A stretch of DNA of 64,000 nt, from contig JBGAHZ010000028.1 in NCBI GenBank assembly GCA_044225915.1, positions 24,524 to 88,523 on the forward strand, in the 5' to 3' direction. Both the position numbers and the translations under genes were made by a program. This stretch comes from Candidatus Obscuribacteraceae bacterium. GTDB taxonomy: Bacteria; Cyanobacteriota; Vampirovibrionia; Obscuribacterales; Obscuribacteraceae. Positions 27,063 through 62,304 of the stretch are shown here, piece after piece. Within the stretch, counting starts at the first letter, position 1. Each line of letters opens with the position of its first letter. A model generated the notes under the pieces. It was not told the DNA's origin. It made no database searches and was given only the letters and a program-made list of their open reading frames with translations.

Positions 27063-27318
27063 GAGCAGGCTGGAAGCCTGCGCTCCCAGGATCTGTATCC
27101 TGGAAACCTGTGCTCCCAGGATCTGCAGGCTGGAAGCCTGCGCTCCCAGGATCTGTATCCTGGAAACCTGTGCTCCCAGGATCTGCAGGCTGGAAGCGTG
27201 CGCTCCCAGGATCTGCATCCTGGAAACCTGTGCTCCTAGGATCTGCAGGCTGGAAGCGTGCGCTCCCAGGATCTGCATCCTGGGAACCTGTGCACCCAGG
27301 ATCTGCATCCTGGAAACG
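27063..27318. repeat. Tandem array (about 4.3 copies of a 60-bp unit, equivalent to alternating 30-bp subunits) of a REP-like palindromic element
   Basis: The unit is gcaggctggaagcctgcgctcccaggatctgtatcctggaaacctgtgctcccaggatct. Each subunit carries a 7-bp-stem hairpin, gcaggct/agcctgc in one and ccaggat/atcctgg in the other. Units 1 and 2 are identical, as are units 3 and 4. The array sits between convergent gene ends. Confidence 0.85.
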
Positions 27319-27330
27319 GCTATTCGGAGA

Positions 27331-30300
27331 CTAGTCGTTCGAGTTTATAGTTACGCCGGAGTTTTTACTGCCCAGAGTGAGGCTGGCCAGCTTATTTCCA
27401 TTGTTTATTCTTACGCTGGTTGGAGCTGTTCCGGTCAAGTTGATGGTTTGAGTTTTGGAGGACGCAAAGCCGTTGCCCGTTAACAGTACGTTGCCTGATA
27501 CGTTGACGTTCGATGTCGGCGTGAATGTGTTCACCAAAGTCGGTCCGAGGGAGATGGTTATGTCGCCTGTGGGACCAGATGATATGTCGCGATCGACAAT
27601 CATCTTGCCTTTGGTGCTGGAATTCGTCACGGTCACATGACCACCAGCGACCAGACCCTGAGAAATAGACAGCGTTCCTGCGTTTGTGGTTATGTCTATA
27701 TCATTGGACACCGATAGCGGTGATGAACCCTCGAGTTTAAGCGAACCATTCGCGGTTATAGCAGCTTGAGCCGCCGCTTTTGTGTTTTCCAGAATAGTGC
27801 CTTTGGGTGCAAGGCAGTTCAGGAATAGCGGACCAAATTTCGCTTGTGCTGTGACCTTAGGCACAGCTACGTTGAACGGATTCACCGACGTACCAATAGC
27901 AATATCGGCTAGTAGCGAGAGCTGTTTTGTGGTCACTGTACCGCCAAACAAGGAGTTTAAAAGGCTTCCGGCTGTTGTGAATCGGGCCTCGTCGGTTGCG
28001 GTCACATCCTGAAACGAGACAAGGTTTGCTGCAGTCACGTCGAAGGACTTGCTGAGGATTGAACCCGTTGCTGTAATATCGCGATCGGCGGCTGTAATGG
28101 AAACCTCCGCCTTCTGAGCGGTGATTTGAGCGATGTTTAGCGCTCCTGGCGACCCGGTGTTGACCTGAATGTTCACGCCGGTTCCACCGCATTCAGCCAA
28201 TAGAGATGGCGCGATGATGTTCAAAGGATCCGACGACGACCCGATTTCCTTGCCTGCGAACAACTGTATTTGAGTTGCAGAGGTGATTGGCGGTGGTCCA
28301 CCGCCATCCTTGATTTCGGTTCCAGCCGAGAGGATAACCAGTTGATTGGCGTTGATCGCGCCTTGTACGTACAGCTCCCGTCCAGCGGATGCTTGAAATG
28401 TTGTTGTCGAGTTGATTGGACCGGCAATGACTAGATCGGCATTTCTATTGAGTTTTTCCGCGCCAGTGAGAAAGGAAGTGCTCGTTCTACTTCCATCCGC
28501 TGCGTAAACGATGGGTACTTTTTTGTTGCTGGAGACTACGTCGGATGTTCTAATTGAGATGGAACCTTCGACCCCGGAGCTACCGCCGGTGGTGCTCAAC
28601 GTACCGGTTCTCACTGCTTCAGATTGAGCTTTTGACGCTCCTCCCACTATATTGATAAACCCATTAAAACCTGTGCCGCTTCCACCAGTACTGATAGTGC
28701 CATTGGTAGTATCAATAGTGCCGCCGCCTTGTCCATCAGTCCCTCTTCCGTCGAAAGCAAATAGACTTACGTTGCCCCCGTTGGTATTACCCGAGGTATC
28801 AGTCGCGCGTGCCAGAATACTGGAGCCGGCGTCCATTTGGATGTTGCCCCCGGTTTTAGAACTCTTGCCTGACAACGTCACAATCCCTGCGTCAGCAGGC
28901 AACGCGGGAAGAGTTGATTTGTTGTTGCCACCTTGATTTGTAAAATCAGCTCCCGCGATTAGCGTGATATCGAAGCCTTTCGAGCTTGCATCGCCGGCGC
29001 TGACGGTAACCCCGCTCTGTATCTCGATATTGGAGGTTGAAACTACTACCAGTGCTTCTGCAACGCTAACGTTTCCTGTGATAGTTATGTCCCCATTCCG
29101 ATTGAAAAACGTAGGGTCGCCCGTCAAGCACACGCTTCCTAGTTGGAGATTATCCGTGCTGGCAATTACGTGCGCTGCACTTCCAGTCTCATTGATAATG
29201 CCAGTGACTTGATTGACATCAGCAAATGCTGTCCCCATGCCGGAGTTTAGATTGAATTGTTTGCTAAATAAATCGCCGCCGATGATCTTGCTGTCGAATG
29301 CTCCGTTGTAATCACTCTCTCGTAAATTGACGGCGCCGTTGAGGGCGCTGATAACTCCATGCTGGTTGTTCACAACAAGTGCCGCGTCTGATGCTCCACG
29401 CAAGTTGACGTTGCCTGCAGTTGAAGCAATCGACCCGTGGTTGTTGACATTGGGAGCGGCAAAACTGAGATCTTTAGCCGCAGTGATCGAACCGTAGTTG
29501 TTTACGGTATTTCCCGCTGTCAGCGTCAAACCGGCGGATGAAGCGATTGTACCGGCATTGCTCAATGTTCCCGAAGCATCAAGAGTTAGATCGATGTTGG
29601 AGTTAATCGTTGCGCCACGGAAGTTGTTGATATCGTCAGCGTGAATGGCTCCCTGTCTGGCGTTGCTGCTGCCTGACAGAGCAAGTACCGTTCCGAAGTT
29701 ATTCAAATCACCTAACAATCTGAAGTCGGAGCGCCTGGAGAAGTCACCACTGGTGGTGACGTTATTTGCTACTACCAGGTTGGCAGCTCGCATAACGTCA
29801 TGATCGCCGGTTATGGCGTCAAGGTTGACATTGCCACCTATGGCGCGACCGCTGCGGTCGACGATTAGTTTTTGTCCATCGCCCGAAAGTGCTTGTTTAA
29901 CAGCAATGTATTCCGCTGCTGTCACCTGGCTGCCGGCAGTGACAGTTTTAGTGCCTTCGCCTGATGTGATTTCGACAGAATCATGAGTGGCAAACAGGTT
30001 TTTGCCGAGTGTAATGTTTCTAGAATTCGAGGTCAGATCAAGATCCAGTCCGCTCTTCAGTTTTACGATGTCGCCCGAGACATTAATCTGGTTTGTTCTT
30101 GCGCGCAAATGATCCAGCATGTTCTGATTGCCGATTCGAGCGGCTCGCAGATCGGCATGACGGTTACTGGATGGCTGCACTATGCTGGCCGCGGGAAGTT
30201 TGTTCTGGCGATCGTTACTCTCGCGGAACAGCGCTCGGGCTGCGTGACGTTCTATGCTGGGATTTTGCAGTCTGAACTCTTTGAAGTTCGAGTGATTGTG

Positions 30301-30393
30301 ACCGGCGTAGGCCGATGAAGTAGTCGCAAGCAGGAGTGTTCCTGCTAAGAAAGATGCTGATTTCAGCGTGACCTTAAGAGCTCGATACTGCAT
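27331..30393 (-). CDS. Large secreted beta-helix repeat protein (adhesin/hemagglutinin-like, about 1020 aa)
   Basis: Signal peptide (…LLLATTSSAYA) followed by about 1000 aa of Gly/Asn/Thr/Ser-rich degenerate repeats (…GNVNL…, …GTIASSAGLTLTAGNTVNNYGSITAA…), typical of parallel beta-helix adhesins. Confidence 0.55.
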   Translation of the reverse strand: MQYRALKVTLKSASFLAGTLLLATTSSAYAGHNHSNFKEFRLQNPSIERHAARALFRESNDRQNKLPAASIVQPSSNRHADLRAARIGNQNMLDHLRARTNQINVSGDIVKLKSGLDLDLTSNSRNITLGKNLFATHDSVEITSGEGTKTVTAGSQVTAAEYIAVKQALSGDGQKLIVDRSGRAIGGNVNLDAITGDHDVMRAANLVVANNVTTSGDFSRRSDFRLLGDLNNFGTVLALSGSSNARQGAIHADDINNFRGATINSNIDLTLDASGTLSNAGTIASSAGLTLTAGNTVNNYGSITAAKDLSFAAPNVNNHGSIASTAGNVNLRGASDAALVVNNQHGVISALNGAVNLRESDYNGAFDSKIIGGDLFSKQFNLNSGMGTAFADVNQVTGIINETGSAAHVIASTDNLQLGSVCLTGDPTFFNRNGDITITGNVSVAEALVVVSTSNIEIQSGVTVSAGDASSKGFDITLIAGADFTNQGGNNKSTLPALPADAGIVTLSGKSSKTGGNIQMDAGSSILARATDTSGNTNGGNVSLFAFDGRGTDGQGGGTIDTTNGTISTGGSGTGFNGFINIVGGASKAQSEAVRTGTLSTTGGSSGVEGSISIRTSDVVSSNKKVPIVYAADGSRTSTSFLTGAEKLNRNADLVIAGPINSTTTFQASAGRELYVQGAINANQLVILSAGTEIKDGGGPPPITSATQIQLFAGKEIGSSSDPLNIIAPSLLAECGGTGVNIQVNTGSPGALNIAQITAQKAEVSITAADRDITATGSILSKSFDVTAANLVSFQDVTATDEARFTTAGSLLNSLFGGTVTTKQLSLLADIAIGTSVNPFNVAVPKVTAQAKFGPLFLNCLAPKGTILENTKAAAQAAITANGSLKLEGSSPLSVSNDIDITTNAGTLSISQGLVAGGHVTVTNSSTKGKMIVDRDISSGPTGDITISLGPTLVNTFTPTSNVNVSGNVLLTGNGFASSKTQTINLTGTAPTSVRINNGNKLASLTLGSKNSGVTINSND

Positions 30394-47693: not shown

Positions 47694-48752
47694 ATGTTGA
47701 AGCAGTTTTATCAGAAAGCGTCTGCTGCTCGTATCGTCACCGCCTCTGTGTGGTGCGCCGTCGTGGTCGTTCTCGGGATCTGCACGGTCGGACAGATCTG
47801 CAGCCAGGTCGAGAAGATTCGGACGAAGAGGGCATTCGACCAGGCGGACATCGAGCGCCACCAGAACGAACACGCTCGTCAGGGTATCACTTCTCAGGTC
47901 TTCGCCGAGGACCTGGACCAGTTGAAGACCAAGCTGGCAGCGAATCCCGACGCCAATTGGGTGGGCTTCTACCTGCATGGCAAGGACGACGGCAGCATCG
48001 CGTACGCGGCGAAGCACGTGCGTGAGCTGCGCGTTCTGACGGCCATGCGCGCCACGATGGACGATGACACGCTGAAGCTTCTCAGTACGCAGACAGAGCT
48101 TCGCCGGCTCGACGTGTGGGACACGGAAGTGACCGACGAAGGCGTCAAGGCGATGAGCACACTCACCAAGCTCGAGGACCTGTGGTTCGGCAGCTCGAAG
48201 CTGACCGACGATGGACTCGTCGGGCTGAAGTCGCTGATTTCGCTGCGCAAACTTTCGTTGGGCGACAGCATCAGTGGCGCTGGACTTGCTCACCTGGCGG
48301 ACCTTCCCGAGCTCCGTGAGGTGGGTTTGCACGGCATCGAAGTCACCGATGACGGGATTGCCAGTCTTAAGAAGCTCAAACACCTGGAGGTCGTTAACCT
48401 TTACCACACCGGCATCACCGACAAGGGGCTGGCCAGCCTCGGAGAGTGTAAGGAGCTGAAGCAGGCCTACCTGGTGAAGACGGCAATCACGGACGACGGT
48501 ATCCAGTCGCTGGCGAAGCTCGACAAGCTCGAGCTGCTTGATGTCTGCGATACCGCGGTCACCGCCGACGGTGTCGCCCGGCTCAAGCGGTCGCTGCCGA
48601 ACCTGAGGGTGAAGTACGGACCGTGGTCGGCAGCCAACGAAGGCATCGGCGTGCTCGTCGACATGGGGTGGTTTCTCGGTTTGGCGATTAGCACGAGCGT
48701 TCTGGGCCTCTTCCTGGAGTCGTACGTTAGCCGGACGGCACAGGGCGTTTAG
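47694..48752 (+). CDS. Leucine-rich-repeat (LRR) protein with an N-terminal TM anchor
   Basis: GGAGAAAC RBS. About 24-aa repeats of the form L..L.L..T.VTD.G(L/V). C-terminal hydrophobic segment. Confidence 0.6.
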   Translation: MLKQFYQKASAARIVTASVWCAVVVVLGICTVGQICSQVEKIRTKRAFDQADIERHQNEHARQGITSQVFAEDLDQLKTKLAANPDANWVGFYLHGKDDGSIAYAAKHVRELRVLTAMRATMDDDTLKLLSTQTELRRLDVWDTEVTDEGVKAMSTLTKLEDLWFGSSKLTDDGLVGLKSLISLRKLSLGDSISGAGLAHLADLPELREVGLHGIEVTDDGIASLKKLKHLEVVNLYHTGITDKGLASLGECKELKQAYLVKTAITDDGIQSLAKLDKLELLDVCDTAVTADGVARLKRSLPNLRVKYGPWSAANEGIGVLVDMGWFLGLAISTSVLGLFLESYVSRTAQGV

Positions 48753-48980
48753 TTGCGCTGGCGCTGTTTAACGGCGTGAGCCGACAGACTTTGTAGTAGC
48801 GGAGAGGCACCACATTTGGTGCCTCTCTGCTCTTGGAATTGGAATACTAAAACGGTTAGTAGAAATCGAAAGCAATAAGAACATGCAAGGCGGCACCGTA
48901 GGTGGTGCCGTCTGCATGTCTTATTGCTTTGTTAGTACGCTAGGTCAAGCCGCATCAGCGGCGCGGCCTTGCGTTTAAAC

Positions 48981-50072
48981 TCAGCGGCGGAAATTGAGCT
49001 TCCAATCCTCGTGGTCGGCGCGGACGGAGTTGGTCATGACGCGGACGGCGTCGAACAACCAGTTGTCACCGCGCTTCTTGAGGTCGGCTGCGATCCGTCT
49101 GGCGGCGCCTTCGGTGCCCATATGGACGTTGGCTGCTTCGATGCCCATGGCCCGCAGCAGCACTTCGGCGTTGGTGTTGGACGGCAAGTCCGAAAACTCA
49201 ACTCGTGAGCAGTCCGGAGCCAGCCGTCTGACAGTCCAGCCGTTATCGGCGACAACCGACGGGTCGCCGGAGTGAACCAGCAGACTTTCGCGGATGCGTC
49301 GGCCGACTGACGCCGGCTCGCCAAGACCAGCCCAGACACAGGCGGACGGCACGATCATTTTGGCTTCGCGTGCGATGCGGGCACCGTTCCAGTGACCGAG
49401 GGCAACGAAGCGCGGACGGCCGAGACTGCCTTTGCCTGCGGTTCTCGAACCGAAAGTGCAGTCGATGCCGGGTTCCGGCATATGACTGCGCAGCACTTGC
49501 TTCACGTCGTCACCGACCCGAGCGCGGCGGTTTACCTGAAGGTCGAGCTTCGCCCAGAACACCTTGGGGTGCCGGAGTTCGCTCGACACGATACGACCGA
49601 GTCGAACGTTTTCTTCAGCCAGAACGATAGGTTTGATGCCGCGAGCTAGACCTTCGCGATATCCGTCGAGGATGACCGAGCAAGCGTCGCTTACGCGAAT
49701 CGAGAGCTTGGATGCGCGAATGGCGAGCTTCGTCGAAGTTCCCAACCGCACGAGATCGAGCGTGTACGGCTGATGGTAAGCTTCATCGAAGTCGTTGATA
49801 CCCCAGATGAGCCGCCCTTCGCCGTCGCGCCAGGTGCTGTAGTTTTCGACGTGCAAGTCGCAGACTGCGCGGACAACAGCCGCGTCCATCAAATCACCGC
49901 AGAGGGTGGGAAAGACTTGAGCCCAGCGGTAGAAGGTGGCGCGGAGAAAAATAAACGGGTCGGAAGCCATGGCCTCGTGCTTTTTCACAAGGTCAGTCTT
50001 CACAACCGGGATGTGGGTGACCAGCCATTTCTCGAAAGATCTGGTGGCTGCCACGATTGTGGTGGATTTCAT
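48981..50072 (-). CDS. DUF2252-family protein
   Basis: The N-terminal SDPFIFLRATFYRW… block and a length of about 360 aa fit DUF2252. GGAG RBS precedes the ATG at 50072. Confidence 0.5.
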   Translation of the reverse strand: MKSTTIVAATRSFEKWLVTHIPVVKTDLVKKHEAMASDPFIFLRATFYRWAQVFPTLCGDLMDAAVVRAVCDLHVENYSTWRDGEGRLIWGINDFDEAYHQPYTLDLVRLGTSTKLAIRASKLSIRVSDACSVILDGYREGLARGIKPIVLAEENVRLGRIVSSELRHPKVFWAKLDLQVNRRARVGDDVKQVLRSHMPEPGIDCTFGSRTAGKGSLGRPRFVALGHWNGARIAREAKMIVPSACVWAGLGEPASVGRRIRESLLVHSGDPSVVADNGWTVRRLAPDCSRVEFSDLPSNTNAEVLLRAMGIEAANVHMGTEGAARRIAADLKKRGDNWLFDAVRVMTNSVRADHEDWKLNFRR

Positions 50073-50189
50073 TGTTAACTCCAATCTACCGCTATGGATA
50101 GACTACAAGTAATTTCGGATATTGTGCCAATCATCACCCTCGCGACTATAAGCGGTAGAGGAGCGGGCACCAACGAAAAGGCAGGGCGA

Positions 50190-50217
50190 AATCGATCGCC
50201 CTGCCTTCGCGATGCGC
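50190..50217 (-). terminator. Intrinsic-terminator-like hairpin 3' of tandem copy 1
   Basis: On the minus strand aggcagggcgatcgatttcgccctgcct is followed by TTTCGTT, giving a 10-bp GC-rich stem. Confidence 0.45.
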
Positions 50218-50305
50218 TTTCAGGCGCGCAGATAAGGGTGCTCCGAGACGACCATGCCGTGCGAGTCTCGCAGCAGCATGGTCGCTCAGAGCGGCTGGGA
50301 GGCGC

Positions 50306-51069
50306 TTAGCCTTGCGGCTTGTCGCCGGCCGGCGGGGTGGAGGGTGTGCTGGTCAGGGCGTCGAGCTTGGAGCGGCCGGACTTGGCGGCAGCCTTGGTCT
50401 TGATGTCCTTGAGCTCGCGCTCGCCGGCGGTGCCATCGGCCAGCTTCGCCTTGTTGCGGGCGACGTTGAGGTCGTGGTCGACGGCGTCGAAGTCCTCGGA
50501 GGCTTCGGAGAGCTGGTCGTTGATGTCCTTGGCCTGCTGCTTGGCGGCGGCCGAGGTGTTGATGGCGTCGGTCAGGTGAGCGTTGAGCTCGCTGTCGGCG
50601 ACCTTGTCGGCGAAGGCCTGGAGGGACTCGACGGTGGAGTCGAGGGCGGCCTGGGGGCCTGGGCTTCCTTGGAGGCGTTGGTGGCTTCGGCGAGGCGGCC
50701 CTTGATGCGCTCGACCTTGGCTTCGGCGGCTTCGAACTGCTTGCCGAGGGTGTCGAGGGCGGTTTCGGAGGCCTGCAGTTCCTTGGCGGTCTTGTACTCG
50801 CCCTGGATGGTGACGACGGCGGCCTGGGCTTCACCGAGGTCCTTGGTGATGTCGTCGACGGTGGCCATGCACTCGGCGACCGAGGTGCGCTGCGCGGGCA
50901 GGAGGGCCTTGAGCTGCTTGTAGCGGTCCTTGTTGCGCTCGACGGGCGTGGTGCCCTTGGAGACGACGGCGCCGCCGCGGATGCGGAGGAGCTGACGGAA
51001 GGCCGGCCAGGCGAAGAACAGGACGACGCCGAGGATGGCCAGAACGATAACGATGGTGGTACCAGTCAT
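50306..51069 (-). pseudogene. Tandem copy 1 of the membrane-anchored coiled-coil protein gene, frame-shifted by a 7-nt insertion near 50645
   Basis: The N-terminal 120 aa (MTGTTIVIVLAILGVVLFFAWPAFRQLLRIRGG…) are read by ORF 50572-51084, after which the frame is lost. Aligning against copy 2 shows an extra ggggcct. Confidence 0.55.
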
Positions 51070-51315
51070 GTGCGAATTCTCCAATTTGGATGTTTCGAGA
51101 TTTGGGAGTCAGGCGTGTTTGCCTGGATTTCCCGGTTTGGAGGAGCGACACATTGCCGCTCGCTCCGACACCTTCCACGTGGTGGCAGGTTGAAAAACGA
51201 TGTGGATGCCTCGAGAGACATCTACCTAATAACGAGCTGACGACCGAAATCGCCGACGAAGCGAGAGCTCCGCCGGCGATGCCTTGTGGTACTATCTGCG
51301 GTGCTCGGTTTGGGC

Positions 51316-51618
51316 TCAGAAGAAGAGCTTGTAACCGAGGCCGCCGATTGCAATCACCGCCAGAAGCAGGATGAACTGCAACTGTCTGATGCGAACGCGG
51401 TTTTCGGCTTCCGGCGCGGGTACCGGTTGTGGACGCTTCTCCGAGGGACCGGGAAGCCACCAGAACGGACCCGTGGGATCCAGTGAACTCCGTCGATAGT
51501 TCTGCTCGAAATTTCGCGCTCTTCGTGGAGCGAAGAGGAAGTAGTCGAACGTCAGGGCGACGATTCCCAGTGCGATCCCTGCTACGACGATGCCACCAAT
51601 CACGGTGAGGACGCTCAT
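51316..51618 (-). CDS. Small two-TM membrane protein between copies 1 and 2
   Basis: Hydrophobic N- and C-terminal helices (MSVLTVIGGIVVAGIALGIVALTF…ILLLAVIAIGGLGYKLFF). Confidence 0.3.
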   Translation of the reverse strand: MSVLTVIGGIVVAGIALGIVALTFDYFLFAPRRARNFEQNYRRSSLDPTGPFWWLPGPSEKRPQPVPAPEAENRVRIRQLQFILLLAVIAIGGLGYKLFF

Positions 51619-51802
51619 GCGTTTGCTCCGAACGGGCTTGCAACGGCATTGGCGCCGTGCTGTTAAGGGTGTTGTGCGATGTGAGCGATACCACTGAGCT
51701 TATGCTCGAGATGTTACCACCCGGGTGACGCGCGCCTCTGAACGACCATGACGTGCGGGCCTCGCACGAACATGGCCGCCCAGAGGCAATGGCTGAAGGC
51801 GA

Positions 51803-52573
51803 TCAGGCCTTCGGGGTGTCGCCGGCCGGCGGGGTGGTCGGGGCGGCCGGGGTGCTGGTCAGGGCGTCGAGCTTGGAGCGGCCGGACTTGGCGGCGGCCT
51901 TGGTCTTGATGTCCTTCAGCTCGCGCTCGCCGGCGGTGCCGTCGGCCAGCTTCGCCTTGTTGCGGGCGACGTTGAGGTCGTGGTCGACGGCGTCGAAGTC
52001 CTCGGCGGCCTCGGAGAGCTTGTCGTTGATGTCCTTGGCCTGCTGCTTGGCGGCGGCCGAGGTGTTGATGGCGTCGGTCAGGTGAGCGTTGAGCTCGCTG
52101 TCGGCGACCTTGTCGGCGAAGGCCTGGAGGGACTCGACGGTGGAGTCGAGGGCGGCCTGGGCTTCCTTGGAGGCGTTGGTGGCTTCGGCGCGAGGCGGCC
52201 CTTGATGCGCTCGACTTGGCTTCGGCGGCTTCGAACTGCTTGCCGAGGGTGTCGAGGGCGGTTTCGAGCCTGTGCAGTTCCTTGGCGGTCTTGTACTTTC
52301 GCCCTGGATGGTGACGACGGCGGCCTGGGCTTCCGCGAGGTCCTTGGTGATGTCGTCGACGGTGGCCATGCACTCGGCGACCGAGGTGGCGCTGCGCGGC
52401 AGGAGGGCTTCCTTGAGCTGCTTGTAGCGGTCCTTGTTGCGCTCGACGGGCGTGGTGCCCTTGGAGACGACTTCGCCGCCGCGGATGCGGAGGAGCTGGC
52501 GGAAGGCCGGCCAGGCGAAGAACAGGACGACGCCCAGGATGGCGAGCACGATAACGATGGTGGTTCCGGTCAT
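51803..52573 (-). CDS. Tandem copy 2: membrane-anchored coiled-coil protein (256 aa, DUF948-like TM plus helical architecture). Full-length ORF, but an internal segment is scrambled by compensating indels
   Basis: N-terminal TM helix followed by an Ala/Glu/Lys/Asp-rich helical domain and a Pro/Thr C-terminus. Residues about 95-145 (STRPPRNCTGSKPPSTPSASSSKPPKP…) are an alternate-frame reading of the segment that reads EYKTAKELQASETALDTLGKQFEAAEAKVERIKGRL in copy 1. Confidence 0.5.
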   Translation of the reverse strand: MTGTTIVIVLAILGVVLFFAWPAFRQLLRIRGGEVVSKGTTPVERNKDRYKQLKEALLPRSATSVAECMATVDDITKDLAEAQAAVVTIQGESTRPPRNCTGSKPPSTPSASSSKPPKPSRAHQGPPRAEATNASKEAQAALDSTVESLQAFADKVADSELNAHLTDAINTSAAAKQQAKDINDKLSEAAEDFDAVDHDLNVARNKAKLADGTAGERELKDIKTKAAAKSGRSKLDALTSTPAAPTTPPAGDTPKA

Positions 52574-53016
52574 GTGTGATTACTCCAGTTAGGATTTGTC
52601 GATTTGAGCAGAGCGTGATTGCCCTGCTCGGTGAGGTCGAAGGGCACATCGCCGTTCGACCAGTACGCTTGACCGTGACTCGGTCAGCAAGAGAAAACCA
52701 GGCGGTGATTGCCTTGTGGCACACGCCGCCCATACGCTCTTCCTGTTCCTCAGTCCGAGACGCACTCTGGCGTCGTCTGGCTGAAGACCGATGGGAAGAG
52801 GCAGAAGGTCGTCTGTGAGAGCACGACCGTCTGCCTCTCTCCACCTCTGTCTGTCGAGCAGGCAGAGGAAGAGAGGGCGAGCCGGAGGCAGTTGTCTGCG
52901 CATCCGGCTCGCGCCAGGGAGGCTTCAGCACCTGGGCTGTACCAGTCAGTCATTGCTGAACGGGTACAGCCCTCCGGTACTACCGGCGGTGCATGAAGTG
53001 AGCCGAACCGAACGGG

Positions 53017-53780
53017 GCGTTCGACTTAGCTCTGCGGCTTGTCGCCGGCCGGCGGGGTGGTCGGGGTGCTGGTCAGGGCGTCGAGCTTGGAGCGGCCGGA
53101 CTTGGCGGCGCCTTGGTCTTGATGTCCTTCAGCTCGCGCTCGCCGGCGGTGCCGTCGGCCAGCTTCGCCTTGTTGCGGGCGACGTTGAGGTCGTGGTCGA
53201 CGGCGTCGAAGTCCTCGGAGGCTCGGAGAGCTTGTCGTTGATGTCCTTGCCTGGTTGCTGGCGGCGGCCGAGGTGTTGATGGCGTCGGTCAGGTGAGCGT
53301 TGAGCTCGCTGTCGGCGACCTTGTCGGCGAAGAGCTGGAGGGACTCGACGGTGGAGTCGAGGGCGGGCCTGGGCTTCTTTGGAGGCGTTGGTGGCTTCGG
53401 CGAGGCGGCCTTTGATGCGCTCGACCTTGGCTTCGGCGGCTTCGAACTGCTTGCCGAGGGTGTCGAGGGCGGTTTCGGAGGCCTGCAGGTTCCTTGGCGG
53501 TCTTGTACTCGCCCTGGATGGTGACGACGGCGGCCTGGGCTTCACCGAGGTCCTTGGTGATGTCGTCGACGGTGGCCATGCACTCGGCGACCGAGGTGCG
53601 CTGAGCGGGCAGGAGGGCCTTGAGCTGCTTGTAGCGGTCCTTGTTGCGCTCGACGGGCGTGGTGCCCTTGGAGACGACTTCGCCGCCGCGGATGCGGAGG
53701 AGCTGGCGGAAGGCCGGCCAGGCGAAGAACAGGACGACGCCCAGGATGGCGAGAACGATAACGATGGTGGTGCCAGTCAT
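53017..53780 (-). pseudogene. Tandem copy 3 of the same gene, frame-shifted by a 1-nt insertion near 53374 and other indels
   Basis: ORF 53289-53885 reads MTGTT… through EYKTAKE, then loses frame. The C-terminal segment is found in other frames. Confidence 0.55.
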
Positions 53781-53997
53781 GTGATTGTACCTTTCGGATT
53801 TTGCCTTGTAAGGCGTTGGTGCGAGGCTTGCTTCGTGCAAGTGTCTCGCGGGTGTGAGCGCACTCGATGGAGGCGCCCGTAGCAAGACTGCACGCCGCCA
53901 TCAGGCGACGTGCTTTAGCGAAAAACCAAACAGTCTGTCGCTTGCGGTGGTTGACGACTACCTTCTCATGCTCCGGTCGAAACCGAAGACAATCGAT

Positions 53998-56900
53998 TTA
54001 GTAGTTGCCGCCGCCGCTGCGACCCTGATAAGACGCGCCGCCGGAGCCTCGATCGATGTTGCCACCGCCCGAGTTGCTCGGTCCGCTTGAGCGCGGGGTG
54101 TCGCCACCGCCGCCGTTGAACCCGCCACCGTTGAAGCCACCGCCGTTGCCGCCGGTGTTCTTCGGACGCATGGCTTCGCGCAGCGCTGCGGCCGCCGCTT
54201 CGGCTGCCGCTACTGCATCGTCGTGCTTCTTCTTGGCGCGGCCTGCGGCTGCCTCGTCGGCTTCTTCGGCTTCCGTGAACGCGGACTTCGCCTTGCTCTT
54301 GGCAGTGGCGTAATCCTTGTTGCGGAAGGCGTTGGCCGATTCGCGCAGCCGAGCATTGGCGGTCGAGACGTCGGCCTGGACGTCGTAGCCGTAGTCGTGA
54401 CGCGACACCGCCGCGATCTTCTCGCTGGCGGAGTCGTAGGCTGCATCGGCTTCGCCGCAGAGCTTGATCTCGGTCTGCGCCGATTCCTTGGCTTCGTCTG
54501 CCCTGGTCTTGGCGGCCCCGGCGTCGGAGCTGATGTCAGCCCAGTCGGACTTGGCGATGGTCAGCCGGCGGTTGGCTTCGTTGTAGGCGGAATTTGCCGC
54601 GGTCAGTTCGTCGCGAGTGCCCTGCGTGGTAGCGTTGTTGCTGACGTAGGGCTGCGCTTGCTGGATTGCGGTGTAAGCCGCGGCCACATCCGTGCGAGCC
54701 TGATCGTAGGCACGCTTCTGCGCGGCGATTGCCGTGTCGAAGCCTTCGAAACTGGCGACCACTTCGTGAGCGGCCTTGTTGACGGCCGGCCAGTCAGCGA
54801 TCTTCTTGTCGGACTCGACCTTCTGCCGATCGAGCTTGATCTTCGCGTCGGCGAATGCCTTGTCGGTCGCGGCAGAGGTGGTGAAGCTGTTGTCGCGGAA
54901 CACGCGAGCCAGACGTTCTGCGGTCTTGAGGCAAGTCGCGACGGTATCGCGGCTGTCCTGACGCAGACGGCGCAGCTCTTTCAGATGCGCGTGCACCTGA
55001 GTCAGCTCGCTGCGGGCGTTGTCCAGTGCCGACTGCGTGCTGCGGACCAGCGCGCGAGCGGCGATGAAGCGCTGCTGGTCGTAGAGCGCCTTGATGTTGG
55101 CCAGGCGCGTAATGGTGGCGTCGGCGGTGCCGTGCCCATTCGTCACCTTGGTGGGCTGGGTGCCGACGTTGGCAGCCAGGAAGTCGCGGTTGAGCTCCAC
55201 GACAGCCTCGTCGGCGGCCGGCAGTTCGTTGTTGAGGCTGACCAGCGTGGTGCGTGCGGGCGTCACGCTTCCTTCGACCGTAGCCTTGGCGGAGACGATG
55301 TCGTCCACCAGCTTGCTCGCCTTGTCGGCAAACGCGCTGGCTTCGCCCTTGGCCTTGTCCGCCTCGTCGAGCTTGCCCGCATAGACGAGGGCCGTGGCGC
55401 TGTCCCAGCTCTTCTGTGCGTCGGCGAGATGGGCATCCGGATTGGCGCCTTCCTCATCGAGCAAGAAACTGGGCGAACGCAGCTCCATCGGCTTGGACTC
55501 ATCCTTGCCGAGCGGGTACTGGTAGGCAGCCGCGGCCTTGCGTTGATCGGCGACCTTGGTGGTCGACGTGCCGATCTGGGTGCGCACGGTGGCCAGCAGC
55601 TTCTTGATGGAGATTGCCCGCTTGAGCCGCTCCCCGAGTGCCTTGAACCCGGCTTCGACCGTTTCGGAGCCGGCGAAGGCTTCCAGCGGATCGGAGCTGA
55701 GAATGGCGATGAAGGCGGTTTGACCTGCCTTCAGCTCGCGAATCGTTCCTTCATAGGGTTCCATCGTCAGCTCGGCAGCCTTGATGTCCGCCCGCTGAGC
55801 GTTGACCTGGCCGTCCAGGGCTTCGACGTCAAGCTTGTTCTGCTTGGCGCCGTTGAAGGCGGAGACGATGCCGGCCAGTGCCTTGTTGGTGCGCTCGAAC
55901 AGAGCCGACATGGCGTCGAGCAGTTCGCCCGGCTTGTAGTCGGCTTTCTCGACCAGACCCCCGAACAGCGTCGCCTCTTCCAGCGGCAGATTGTCGCCGG
56001 TCACCTCGATGGTGCGAAGGCTGAGCAGTTGCTCGACTTCGTCGAAGCCTTTGACCGACGGGAACGAATTGGAGGCGAACGCTTTGCGCGCAGCTTCCAG
56101 GGTGTCCGTCGCCACCTTGCGACGAGCGGAGAATGCGGCGAAGTCCTTACACGCTGCCGTGTAGGTCGTGAGCGTGCGGTTCTTGAACTTGGTCTTCCAG
56201 TCCGACTGCTCGGTGAGGAAGCCCATGTAGCCCGTGCGCAGCTTGAGGTAGAGCGCGTTTGCCGAGTCGAGCTTGGTGGCCCAATCGGCAATCAGCGCTT
56301 CCATCTTCTTGCGGCGCGACGAGTTGCGCACAAGAAGGAAGATCAGTGTGCCAAGGAGGATGGCGGCCAGGGCGCCTCCGCCGATGTAGTACGGCATCGC
56401 CTTCTGGAGCGCCGCTGCCTTTTCGGCTTCGGCCTGACGAGCCTTGATGCCGTCGATGTTGCCGTTGACCACGACGACGATGGCTTCGAACGCGCCGGCC
56501 GGGTCCTGAGGCATGAAGCGCCTCAAGTTGGGAATCACCGGTCCGGAAGTCGTGTCGGAGAAGTAGGCGGCGGTCATCCCCCAATCGGAGAACAAGTTGC
56601 CGCCTTGAGCAGCAACCGATCCCTTATTGGGATTGTCGGCTCGCCGCACCCACATGATGATCATGTAGTTGTCGGACGGGAAGCCGGGTCGCGACTGCCA
56701 CTTCAAGACGAGCTTGTCGAGCGCGTCTCGGCCGGGGATGGAAGCGTTGGCCAGGTCGGAAGCGCCTTCGGTCGCCACCACATAGATCTGCAGTCCGTTG
56801 CGCTGCCCTTCTTGAATCAGTTTGGGCTCGAGTGCGGACAAATCGACCGGTGCCTGACGGTTGCGCGCCAGTTGCGGGTCGACATATACATGCCTGTCCG

Positions 56901-57021
56901 GGCTGAATTCCGGAAGCCAGGTCTGAGATGACTGCGCGAGTGCCGGCTGTGCTAGCACCATGAAGGTGAGCAGCAGAGCCGCTGTGATTACACTGCGCCA
57001 ATGCGAAAGTTGTCTGAGCAT
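53998..57021 (-). CDS. TPM-domain (TLP18.3/Psb32/MOLO-1) membrane protein with a long cytoplasmic coiled-coil and a Gly-rich C-terminus (1007 aa)
   Basis: Signal peptide. The periplasmic region (…HVYVDPQLARNRQAPVDLSALEPKLIQEGQRNGLQIYVVAT…AIVVVVNGNIDGIKA) is TPM-like. A single TM follows (YYIGGGALAAILLGTLIFLLV). The tail is GGNGGGFNGGGFNGGGG. Confidence 0.55.
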   Translation of the reverse strand: MLRQLSHWRSVITAALLLTFMVLAQPALAQSSQTWLPEFSPDRHVYVDPQLARNRQAPVDLSALEPKLIQEGQRNGLQIYVVATEGASDLANASIPGRDALDKLVLKWQSRPGFPSDNYMIIMWVRRADNPNKGSVAAQGGNLFSDWGMTAAYFSDTTSGPVIPNLRRFMPQDPAGAFEAIVVVVNGNIDGIKARQAEAEKAAALQKAMPYYIGGGALAAILLGTLIFLLVRNSSRRKKMEALIADWATKLDSANALYLKLRTGYMGFLTEQSDWKTKFKNRTLTTYTAACKDFAAFSARRKVATDTLEAARKAFASNSFPSVKGFDEVEQLLSLRTIEVTGDNLPLEEATLFGGLVEKADYKPGELLDAMSALFERTNKALAGIVSAFNGAKQNKLDVEALDGQVNAQRADIKAAELTMEPYEGTIRELKAGQTAFIAILSSDPLEAFAGSETVEAGFKALGERLKRAISIKKLLATVRTQIGTSTTKVADQRKAAAAYQYPLGKDESKPMELRSPSFLLDEEGANPDAHLADAQKSWDSATALVYAGKLDEADKAKGEASAFADKASKLVDDIVSAKATVEGSVTPARTTLVSLNNELPAADEAVVELNRDFLAANVGTQPTKVTNGHGTADATITRLANIKALYDQQRFIAARALVRSTQSALDNARSELTQVHAHLKELRRLRQDSRDTVATCLKTAERLARVFRDNSFTTSAATDKAFADAKIKLDRQKVESDKKIADWPAVNKAAHEVVASFEGFDTAIAAQKRAYDQARTDVAAAYTAIQQAQPYVSNNATTQGTRDELTAANSAYNEANRRLTIAKSDWADISSDAGAAKTRADEAKESAQTEIKLCGEADAAYDSASEKIAAVSRHDYGYDVQADVSTANARLRESANAFRNKDYATAKSKAKSAFTEAEEADEAAAGRAKKKHDDAVAAAEAAAAALREAMRPKNTGGNGGGFNGGGFNGGGGDTPRSSGPSNSGGGNIDRGSGGASYQGRSGGGNY

Positions 57022-60936: not shown

Positions 60937-62304
60937 CTACGCGCTCTTGAGCGCGGTCTGAATCGCGCGGGCGCGGGCGACGAGCGCCAGCATGGCGTCC
61001 TTGCCTGCGAGCGGGTCGCTGGTGTAGGACTTGCGCACTTCCACTTCGTCGCGGTTGATGGCGTCGAACTCGCCCTTGTGAGGCGCGAAAGCTGCGTCAC
61101 CGATACGACCCCACTTCATCTCGATGTCGGCTTGCACCGCATCGAGGTCGGAGCCGGCGGCGAGCGCTTCCTTGATCGAGCGCATGATGCCCGACAGCGC
61201 CTTGTTGGTCTGGTCGAACAACGTCGCCATCGAGTTGAGCAGCTCGTTGGGCTTGTAGTCGTTCTTCTTGACCAGACCGCCGAACAGCGTTGCATCTTCC
61301 AGCGCGATGTCGGAGCCTTCGACCGTCACCGTCTCGTTCGCCAGTTTGTTGATGCAACCCTGGTAGTTGCCCGCGTCGAACAGCTTGCGCGCATCGACGA
61401 GATGAGCGTTGGCTTTGGTACGCCGCGCCGAGAAGTCGGCGAAGTTGGTGAGCGCCGCCTCGTACTGGGACTTGGTGGCGCCGGTGAACTTGCCCTTCCA
61501 GTCCGATTGATCCTGGACGAATCCGAGGTAACCGGCCCGGAGCTTGAGGTAGAGGGCGTTTGCCGAATCCATCTTCTCGGTCCAGTCGGCCAGAGCCGCC
61601 TGCGCGGTAGCCTTCAACGCGCCGGTCGAACGCGAGCGCATGAAGAAGAAGGCGCCGGCGCCGCCAAGCGCAAGCAGGATGACGAACACGATCGGCAGCT
61701 TGCTCATGAAGTTGGAGTGCTCGGTCGCCTGCTGCTGCGCGGCGTTGTAGTCGTCGATCACCTTGTTGACGTTCGCGGCGATGCCGTTGAAGAGCCCCTT
61801 CGGGTCTTGTGGCATGTACTTTTTGACAGCCGGAACCACAGGACCGGTCGCCGAGTTGAGTGTGGCGCCATTCAGTCCGTAGACCTTCAGGTTGGAGCCG
61901 GCGTTGACCGCGACCCAGCCTTCCGACGGATTGGTGGCACTGCGCATCCAGAGCATGAGCACGTAGTTGTCGCTCGGGAAGCCATTGGCTCCGCCCCAAC
62001 GCAAGAGCAGCTCATCGAGGCGATTGGCGCCCAGGTTGCCGGAACCGGTTTCGGTCGTTTGCTGAACGACCACGACCAGAAACTTGACGTTGTTTTTCTC
62101 GCCGGCTTCCTTGAGCTTCTGCTCGAGACCGGGCAGCGCCACAGGGAAATCCGGGTTGTTGGCGACAGCCGGATCGATGTAAACCTGCGTGCCCGACTTG
62201 AAGTCCGGACGCCAGGGCTGAGCCGCTGCCGCCTGAGCCGGTGCCAGGACAAGCAAGGCAATAAGCATCACGAGCGCGCTCGTGAGTTTCGTTACGAAGT
62301 TCAT
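60937..62304 (-). CDS. TPM-domain membrane protein (455 aa), paralog of the N-terminal half of 53998-57021
   Basis: Signal peptide, TPM-like periplasmic domain, one TM. DWTEKMDSANALYLKLRAGYLGFVQDQSDWKGKF aligns with DWATKLDSANALYLKLRTGYMGFLTEQSDWKTKF in the larger protein. Confidence 0.55.
   Translation of the reverse strand: MNFVTKLTSALVMLIALLVLAPAQAAAAQPWRPDFKSGTQVYIDPAVANNPDFPVALPGLEQKLKEAGEKNNVKFLVVVVQQTTETGSGNLGANRLDELLLRWGGANGFPSDNYVLMLWMRSATNPSEGWVAVNAGSNLKVYGLNGATLNSATGPVVPAVKKYMPQDPKGLFNGIAANVNKVIDDYNAAQQQATEHSNFMSKLPIVFVILLALGGAGAFFFMRSRSTGALKATAQAALADWTEKMDSANALYLKLRAGYLGFVQDQSDWKGKFTGATKSQYEAALTNFADFSARRTKANAHLVDARKLFDAGNYQGCINKLANETVTVEGSDIALEDATLFGGLVKKNDYKPNELLNSMATLFDQTNKALSGIMRSIKEALAAGSDLDAVQADIEMKWGRIGDAAFAPHKGEFDAINRDEVEVRKSYTSDPLAGKDAMLALVARARAIQTALKSA

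Follow-up and report, generated by a model that had tools for sequence, protein, structure and literature searches.

Probable consensus errors in a triplicated gene for a small membrane-anchored protein in Obscuribacterales

The window, i.e. the whole stretch of 64,000 nt analysed here, contains three near-identical copies of a small gene arranged head-to-tail on the minus strand (50306-51072, 51803-52573 and 53026-53783, in the following copies 1, 2 and 3). According to our analysis, the frame-changing indels in these copies are very probably residual consensus errors of the deposited assembly in a genuine, ancestral three-copy array. In the sequencing and polishing history that we infer for this assembly, unique sequence would have been corrected and the 760-nt near-identical repeat bodies left uncorrected, because short reads or mis-assigned long reads could not be placed uniquely there. 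The deposited products of 165 aa and 256 aa should not be taken as real proteins, and the private frameshifts, which had suggested a variable or decaying array, are a caution about consensus errors in repeats.

Bacterial assemblies from long-read or hybrid data are known to retain indel errors in repeats (Polypolish paper, PMC8812927). As in that case, the indels described here are small and mostly located in short runs, near-identical repeats are hit, unique sequence is clean, and frameshifted or scrambled ORFs are found in the deposited annotation. In contrast to that case, the array holds an 8-nt duplication, which is not a homopolymer-length error, and the sequencing technology of the assembly is presumed.

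Layout of the array

Alignment confirmed what the initial annotation had described, namely three tandem minus-strand copies which are near-identical and carry private frame-changing indels. Their mean column identity is about 97% in the coding part and falls to 91% when the flanks are included, and the repeats far exceed chance expectation. The spacer between copy 2 and copy 1 comprises 730 nt and holds an ORF of 100 aa with two transmembrane (TM) helices (51618..51316), and the spacer between copy 3 and copy 2 comprises 451 nt. The difference between the spacers and the small two-TM ORF in the longer one had been noticed before, but the lengths given at that time (733 and 443 nt) had to be corrected.

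For comparison, short-read metagenome contigs with 97-99% DNA identity to the window were used (L001-L007 and L024-L026), several of which are anchored in the unique flanks. They belong to four accession series (ERR18793xx, ERZ92617x, ERZ272963xx and SRR285202xx) and represent related populations with about 1% SNP divergence, which may come from other samples than the window. A literature search for PRJEB19935 retrieved no paper. One of the contigs, L003, independently reproduces the tandem order, since it runs from the end of copy 3 through copy 2 and the 100-aa ORF to the start of copy 1. The tail of copy 2 carries a 9-nt insertion as a distinguishing mark, and the distinguishing flanks, tails and SNPs of each copy are reproduced by the independent contigs L001, L003, L004 and L026.

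These observations bear on the idea that the triplication itself is an assembly artefact, in which either a single gene was expanded or a larger array was collapsed to three copies. In line with such an artefact, contig L002 passes from the 5' part of copy 3 into the 3' tail of copy 2, and many homologous loci in short-read metagenome-assembled genomes (MAGs) stop at contig ends; the copy number is therefore hard for assemblers and may vary between strains. However, an artefact of this kind would have to account for the copy-specific marks in four contigs, for the span of L003 and for the three-copy arrangement in L008 (a contig of 2.59 Mb), L009, L010, L011 (a complete chromosome) and L013, and we consider it very improbable. 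The earlier suspicion of a collapsed repeat was thus not borne out, and the three-copy arrangement is regarded as real and ancestral.

Indels in the three copies

Copy 1, which encodes a small TM-anchored helical protein, is frameshifted by an 8-nt tandem duplication at 50648..50663, where GGCCTGGG is present twice on the plus strand, resulting in the 165-aa product. The tandem duplication had been recognized near 50645, but with a length of 7 nt instead of 8 nt. Base-calling would more typically produce 1-nt homopolymer errors than a tandem duplication of this length. Removal of the 8 nt yields an ORF of 251 aa, and an intact gene for its exact product, P0025, is present on four independent contigs (L004-L007). 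The duplication is missing from all five short-read contigs aligned across the site (L001 and L004-L007), and two of them, L001 and L004, align to the unique sequence on either side of copy 1.

In copy 2, the ORF of 256 aa remains open and about 40 residues are scrambled, in agreement with the previous description of compensating indels that keep a full-length ORF. Its product, P0006, is deposited at NCBI as part of a contig of 103,027 nt. Alignment with the other copies and with the short-read contigs located the indels in the segment 52191..52411 on the minus strand: +3 at 52409-52411, a -1/+1 pair at 52400/52389, +2 at 52298-52299, a complex change at 52267-52272, -1 at 52216 and +2 at 52191-52192. 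These are 8-9 compensating indels whose lengths add up to a multiple of 3. Since, in addition, the alternative frames across this segment are devoid of stop codons, the open ORF of copy 2 is expected by chance. The intact allele of this copy, P0026 (254 aa), is present on L002 and L003. The full-length ORF could also be seen as a sign that the indels are read through by programmed ribosomal frameshifting or another kind of recoding. We regard this as hardly conceivable, because the open frame is already explained by the stop-free alternative frames and the net shift, homologues elsewhere need no recoding, and a search of the region with Rfam gave no hits.

Copy 3 is broken by five 1-nt indels (+1 at 53489, +1 at 53367, and -1 at about 53260, 53223 and 53111) and by two small substitution clusters. 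Private indels had correctly been assigned to this copy, although as one inserted G plus one inserted CT. Its intact allele, P0031 (251 aa), was found on L024, and L002 and L026 tie copy 3 to the upstream unique flank; further, P0027 is intact on L025/L026. Altogether, the three copies are intact in the population contigs with ORFs of 251, 254 and 251 aa, and an intact allele is encoded by 10 out of 10 short-read contigs (L001-L007, L024-L026). Among the contigs with close relatives that were examined, only two NCBI contigs (103 kb and 816 kb) carry frameshifted alleles. JGI metagenome contigs were also scanned with exact patterns for the intact, +1 and +8 variants; none of the variants was matched, and the scan was hence uninformative.

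The distribution of the indels is an argument for consensus errors, and so are their contexts, most of which are dinucleotide repeats or runs in which a base occurs 2-3 times. In about 4.8 kb of unique sequence, comprising the neighbouring gene of a 1007-aa protein, both spacers and a DUF2252 gene, the window differs from the short-read contigs by about 36 SNPs and 0 indels, whereas 14-15 indel events are located in the 2.3 kb of the repeat bodies (Fisher p = 1.3e-7). The independent assemblies of a close population are thus free of the lesions, and the initial suggestion of a mis-polished tandem repeat is supported by the confinement of the indels to the repeat bodies and by the recurrence of the pattern in a second MAG (see below). 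In accordance with the previous remark that the rest of the window has clean ORFs, large genes tested elsewhere are uninterrupted: AcrB matches HMM positions 2-1020 of 1021, and two TldD/PmbA-type genes, an HlyD-family gene, the gene of a 698-aa debranching enzyme and the 1007-aa gene are not interrupted either. Overlapping same-strand ORF pairs elsewhere in the window were considered as possible frameshifts, but turned out to be complete, separate genes.

The array in related genomes and other explanations of the indels

The second MAG, ACE_CYA3 (L010, JAHBVO010000004.1), can be compared with the 95%-identical L008. The 2.8-kb large gene shows 0 indels between them, and all three small copies of L010 are riddled with indels and noisy stretches. 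The indel site CTCTCCGA[A/G]GCC is common to the window and L010. The change CGAAGCC to CGAGCC accounts for three 1-nt deletions, two of them in copy B of L010 and one in copy 3 of the window, and a fourth, 2-nt event in copy C of L010 also falls on this common site. These events are consistent with context-specific miscalls. Dcm-type methylation (CCWGG) was considered as the cause of errors, but the relation is weak, since only 3 out of 12 indel events are located within 3 nt of the motif.

Alternatively, the indels could be real and originate from a localised, context-specific process that recurrently hits motifs such as CGARGCC in two Obscuribacterales lineages and spares the flanks. This would mean that a targeted diversification or inactivation mechanism acts on a dosage-amplified membrane scaffold gene, and we rate it as improbable.

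The comparison with related genomes, as proposed in the initial annotation, revealed three intact tandem copies in L008, L009, L011 and L013. The three copies are located downstream of a homologue of the 1007-aa gene in several genera. The small genes share 97-100% DNA identity when they belong to one genome, but 55-80% when genera are compared, and their GC3 is 0.92 compared to 0.59-0.80 in the neighbouring genes. Since the identity within genomes is far above that between genera, the copies appear to be kept near-identical in each genome by concerted evolution, probably through gene conversion. The contrast in identity, the conserved copy number and the conserved synteny are all consistent with such a process.

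Concerted evolution of duplicated bacterial paralogs by gene conversion is exemplified by the tufA/tufB pair. The array resembles such cases in the likeness of the copies within a genome, the conserved copy number and synteny, and the elevated GC3. It differs in that it comprises three head-to-tail copies of an uncharacterised, lineage-restricted membrane protein gene, and in that gene conversion is here presumed from sequence comparison. In non-photosynthetic relatives of cyanobacteria, gene conversion and dosage amplification could be studied on this array as a small example.

We also considered the possibility that the indels are real and that all three copies were recently pseudogenised in the strain of the window, so that the array is decaying. 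Indeed, the deposited sequence carries the indels, the products P0006 and P0029 are included in an NCBI-derived protein collection, and the short-read contigs, which differ by about 1% SNPs, may originate from sister strains. However, decay would need about 15 indels with hardly any substitutions and none in the surrounding 4.8 kb including the non-coding spacers, and thus indels greatly in excess of what the SNP level predicts. Moreover, the partner gene of the 1007-aa protein is intact, relatives carry three intact copies, and an unrelated MAG would have to undergo parallel decay with one common site. Active gene conversion would tend to repair or spread lesions and not keep them private. 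Finally, between copies 1 and 2 of the population in their intact form, synonymous differences (13 codons) outnumber non-synonymous ones (6 codons), which points to purifying selection on the intact alleles. We therefore consider decay unlikely.

Even less probable, in our opinion, is a phase-variable contingency locus, in which slippage at short repeats such as GGCCTGG would switch the copies on and off. The 8-nt duplication and several changes of 1-2 nt beside short runs resemble slippage, and the proximity of a quarter of the indel events to CCWGG was also taken into account. On the other hand, the alignments are free of long homopolymers and of simple-sequence tracts with many units in the small gene, the runs at the indel sites being 2-3 nt long. 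The indels are spread over about 14 sites in the array instead of one switch tract, the 'on' allele is present in every close-relative contig examined (L001-L007, L024-L026), and five independent indels in copy 3 cannot form a reversible switch. The initial idea of a decaying or phase-variable array is therefore not supported, and residual consensus errors are the preferred explanation.

The small protein, its neighbours and predicted RNA structures

The small protein of roughly 251 aa is composed of an N-terminal TM anchor, a three-helix bundle with one more helix, and a Pro/Thr-rich tail; its helical domains would be cytoplasmic. No curated family was matched in Pfam or NCBIfam. The comparison with DUF948, LemA and apolipoprotein-like families, which had been proposed earlier, gave no match: the LemA HMM (PF04011) had no hit at E <= 1 in 22 family members, LemA chains were not among the results of a PDB profile search at E <= 10, and DUF948 and apolipoprotein-like families were absent from the Pfam scan hits. 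HMM and PDB sequence searches also gave no hits for PspA-like membership.

EzrA (PF06160) scored 21 bits (E = 1.2e-4) against the small protein, and sub-threshold hits were obtained in 14 of the 22 family members (best E = 6.6e-7) and in the 1007-aa neighbour. Membership was rejected, since scores of about 20 bits are well under the gathering threshold of 39.6 bits. The likeness consists in one N-terminal TM helix, a basic stretch and antiparallel three-helix-bundle repeats, the bundles of EzrA being cytoplasmic and spectrin-like. In contrast to EzrA with about 560 aa, the small protein has only one bundle in 251 aa, and the array is not located in the context of cell-division genes.

The 1007-aa gene is located directly upstream of the array (53998..57021, minus strand). 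Based on its sequence and a structure model, we read its product as a signal peptide, a TPM-like outer domain, a TM helix, a helical region of about 700 aa and a Gly-rich tail. Homology of the small protein to the helical region of the 1007-aa protein was considered and rejected (hhalign probability 1.5%).

LemA-type small membrane proteins may be encoded beside TPM-domain proteins. The array is reminiscent of this arrangement, since the gene of a small helical-bundle protein, anchored by an N-terminal TM helix, neighbours that of a membrane protein with a Gly-rich C-terminal tail and an outer domain modelled as a TPM fold. It differs by the extra helical region of about 700 aa in the large protein and by the triplication of the small gene, and the HMMs of LemA (PF04011) and TPM (PF04536) gave no hit at any threshold tried. 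A literature search linking LemA and TPM domains led to a study that gives no operon evidence.

Together, the 1007-aa gene and the three copies of the small gene are a conserved, Obscuribacterales-restricted and previously unannotated module. This module may define a candidate membrane scaffold, in which the three small proteins would be a dosage-amplified partner of the 1007-aa protein. A paralog of 455 aa (60937..62304, minus strand) shares 38% identity with the N-terminal 446 residues of the 1007-aa protein, and such a second paralog is also present in L008 and L010.

The 100-aa ORF in the spacer between copy 2 and copy 1 (51316..51618, minus strand) is also called as a gene on L001-L005, and among its variants in the population, synonymous differences number up to 3 and non-synonymous ones 0. 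It had no Pfam or NCBIfam hit and was absent from the other genera examined.

At the RNA level, each copy is followed by a predicted structure on the minus strand. A long stem-loop is located directly after the stop codon of copy 1 (50240..50292; z = -8.9 for a stretch of 146 nt), a homologous hairpin directly after that of copy 2 (51734..51787; z = -5.1), and an extended stem-loop structure after that of copy 3 (52902..53008; z = -5.9). A promoter/terminator consensus scan of the array was essentially empty and did not flag a predicted GC-rich hairpin followed by a U-run at 50172..50208 on the minus strand. In its predicted structure, this hairpin looks like an intrinsic terminator that would close the array.

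Lesions of the three copies and the distribution of indels

One gene is present three times, head-to-tail, on the minus strand, as shown by listing the ORFs, searching for repeats and aligning the copies: copy 1 at 51072..50306, copy 2 at 52573..51803 and copy 3 at 53783..53026. This agrees with the initial annotation, from which the lesions differ in detail. According to the all-frame translation, copy 1 keeps the frame through ...ATNASKEAQA and is shifted beyond it, due to a tandem duplication of 8 nt rather than the annotated 7 nt (plus-strand GGCCTGGG twice at 50648-50663). For copy 3 frame changes had been noted correctly, but we found 1-nt indels at five sites (53489, 53367, approximately 53260, 53223 and 53111), and also two small substitution clusters. 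Copy 2 contains compensating indels, as described before; we find these to be +3, -1/+1, +2, a complex change, -1 and +2 at 52411-52191. Since the indels add up to a multiple of three, its 256-aa ORF stays open, with approximately 40 instead of 50 residues scrambled. The indel-bearing stretch of copy 2 has no stop codons in the alternative frames, and thus in a gene with a GC3 of 0.92 the open ORF is unremarkable.

The window was aligned base by base with short-read metagenome contigs from the same or a related population. In approximately 4.8 kb of unique sequence (2.2 kb of the gene for a 1007-aa protein, both spacers and 1.4 kb of the DUF2252 gene flanking copy 1), approximately 36 SNPs and no indels were detected, while 14-15 indel events were found in the 2.3 kb of the repeat bodies (Fisher p = 1.3e-7). 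All large genes that were tested in other parts of the window are uninterrupted, in line with the clean ORFs seen there initially: the match of AcrB covers positions 2-1020 of the 1021 in the HMM, and two TldD/PmbA-type genes, an HlyD-family gene and a gene for glycogen debranching enzyme are complete. Restriction of the indels to mutually near-identical segments, with the non-coding spacers spared, indicates assembly and not mutation as their origin. Thus, the frame-changing indels are very probably errors of an assembly whose sequencing technology we infer. Genuine, strain-specific pseudogenisation is unlikely in view of this distribution, and recoding is extremely unlikely as an explanation.

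Intact alleles and related genomes

Copy 1 without the 8-nt duplication encodes a 251-aa protein, which was used as a query against a collection of 5.8 billion proteins; the closest relatives were sorted by cluster listing. Among the 24 relatives returned, P0006 is the copy 2 product of the window and P0029 the truncated copy 1 product, both on an NCBI contig of 103,027 nt. Repaired copy 1 is identical to P0025, P0026 (254 aa) is unscrambled copy 2, and P0031 (251 aa) is copy 3 free of frameshifts. The contigs with intact alleles are short-read assemblies of four accession series (ERR18793xx, ERZ92617x, ERZ272963xx and SRR285202xx), which match the window at 97-99% and reach into copy-specific unique flanks. 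Contigs L001 and L004-L006 cover copy 1 and a 100-aa ORF in the spacer between copies 2 and 1; L004 runs on through the entire DUF2252 gene, of which L001 and L006 include approximately the first 100 nt at most. L003 extends from the end of copy 3 through copy 2 and the 100-aa ORF into the start of copy 1, and on L002 and L026 the upstream gene region is linked to copy 3. Therefore, the tandem order is real and all three genes are found intact in nature. The private indels had suggested a decaying or phase-variable array; with intact alleles of all three copies in the population contigs, phase variation is very improbable.

At 2218-3723 of L002 (ERZ27296368 k141_150187), copy 3 is represented by its 5' part, preceded by the upstream flank, and passes directly into the 3' tail of copy 2, followed by the 100-aa ORF. 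Either the short-read assembly was collapsed here, or L002 represents a naturally occurring variant with two copies, generated by unequal crossover.

In a scan of species-representative genomes, the family was found only in Candidatus Obscuribacterales / Melainabacteria MAGs. Using tblastn, three intact tandem copies were detected in four genomes: L008 (a 2.59-Mb contig), L009, L011 (the complete chromosome OZ245871.1) and L013. A collapsed repeat or artefactual triplication, also proposed initially, is contradicted by these copies and by the order reproduced on L003; we give very little credence to an artefactual copy number and conclude that the triplication is real and conserved. Nor are the indels conserved in related genomes, as would be expected of stable pseudogenes; one site is common to the second MAG, ACE_CYA3 (L010, JAHBVO010000004.1). 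The L011 chromosome harbours two further copies in a second array (L012, 2,010,105-2,030,812), located approximately 378 kb from the three-copy array. Next to this second array, the 1007-aa gene had no detected homologue.

The 816-kb contig L010 carries three copies, each frame-broken, and P0016, the product annotated there, is a scrambled form of the intact P0009. L010 and L008 are 95% identical, with no indels in the 2.8-kb large gene and many, together with noisy stretches, in the three small L010 copies. The indel site CTCTCCGA[A/G]GCC is common to the window and L010; the 1-nt deletion CGAAGCC -> CGAGCC was found three times (twice in L010 copy B, once in window copy 3), and L010 copy C has a 2-nt event on the common site. 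Such a pattern would be expected of context-specific miscalls that persisted in repeats. The mis-polished repeat considered in the initial annotation is thus supported by the confinement of indels to repeat bodies and by its recurrence in L010. Many homologous loci of short-read MAGs (L014-L019, L021-L023) stop exactly at contig ends, in or beside the gene, consistent with an array that routinely breaks short-read assemblies.

Evolution and genomic setting of the array

The array copies share 97-100% DNA identity within a genome and 55-80% between genera, and the three-copy arrangement is common to different genera. Judged from these sequences, the array is under concerted evolution, for which gene conversion is the simplest explanation. 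What remains of the biology is an unannotated triplet of genes that is restricted to its lineage, evolves in concert and adjoins the gene for a large protein with a putative TPM-like outer domain. Between intact copies 1 and 2, there are 13 synonymous and 6 non-synonymous codon differences. The GC3 of the neighbouring genes is 0.59-0.80, below that of the small gene, and positions 48000-57000 form a GC-rich island (0.60-0.65 vs 0.50-0.55 across much of the window). This would fit high expression, GC-biased gene conversion or both.

The 1007-aa gene (57021..53998, minus strand) is located directly upstream of the array, as are its homologues in L008, L010, L011, L013, L014, L016 and L019, even at 30% identity. 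A 455-aa ORF (62304..60937, minus strand) is a paralog of its N-terminal half (38% identity over the first 446 residues), covering the putative TPM-like domain, the TM helix and the first helical bundles; such an extra paralog also exists in L008 and L010. The 100-aa ORF with two TM helices (51316-51618, minus strand), within the longer spacer, shows no non-synonymous and up to three synonymous differences on the population contigs. It had no match in a family search, and arrays in other genera lack it.

Structure prediction revealed an unusually stable minus-strand stem-loop directly 3' of each stop codon, at 50240-50292 (copy 1), 51734-51787 (copy 2) and 52902-53008 (copy 3), with z in the range of -5 to -9. 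The first two of these are homologous, and copy 1 is also followed by a hairpin with a U-run. The predicted structures may serve in mRNA stabilisation or processing, or in partial termination.

Encoded proteins and a repeat elsewhere in the window

The small protein belongs to no Pfam or NCBIfam family; its coiled-coil matches were all sub-threshold, with EzrA the most recurrent, and LemA, DUF948 and apolipoprotein-like families, suggested initially, did not match. Its AlphaFold2 model (pLDDT 68) shows a TM helix and four more helices, the first three of them approximately 50 residues long (42-97, 102-151 and 157-205). Because the basic stretch RQLLRIRGG follows the TM helix, the positive-inside rule suggests a cytoplasmic helical domain. 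The 1007-aa protein was modelled over its N-terminal 449 residues (pLDDT 72). Beyond the modelled outer domain it would, by our reading, comprise a TM helix, helical bundles and then a Gly-rich tail at the end. The Pfam TPM model did not match it, and no homology between the small and the large protein was detected. Tentatively, the small proteins could form an abundant membrane-anchored cytoplasmic scaffold, whose partner might be the cytoplasmic helical region in the 1007-aa protein, and the triplication could supply the dosage.

Elsewhere, a tandem repeat is present at 27065-27317, with a 30-nt unit (8.3 copies) or a 60-nt unit (4.2 copies, 95% match) which by eye is partly palindromic. It lies just past the 3' end of a 1020-aa ORF (30393..27331, minus strand), in which many short repeats rich in Gly, Asn, Thr and Ser are visible by eye.
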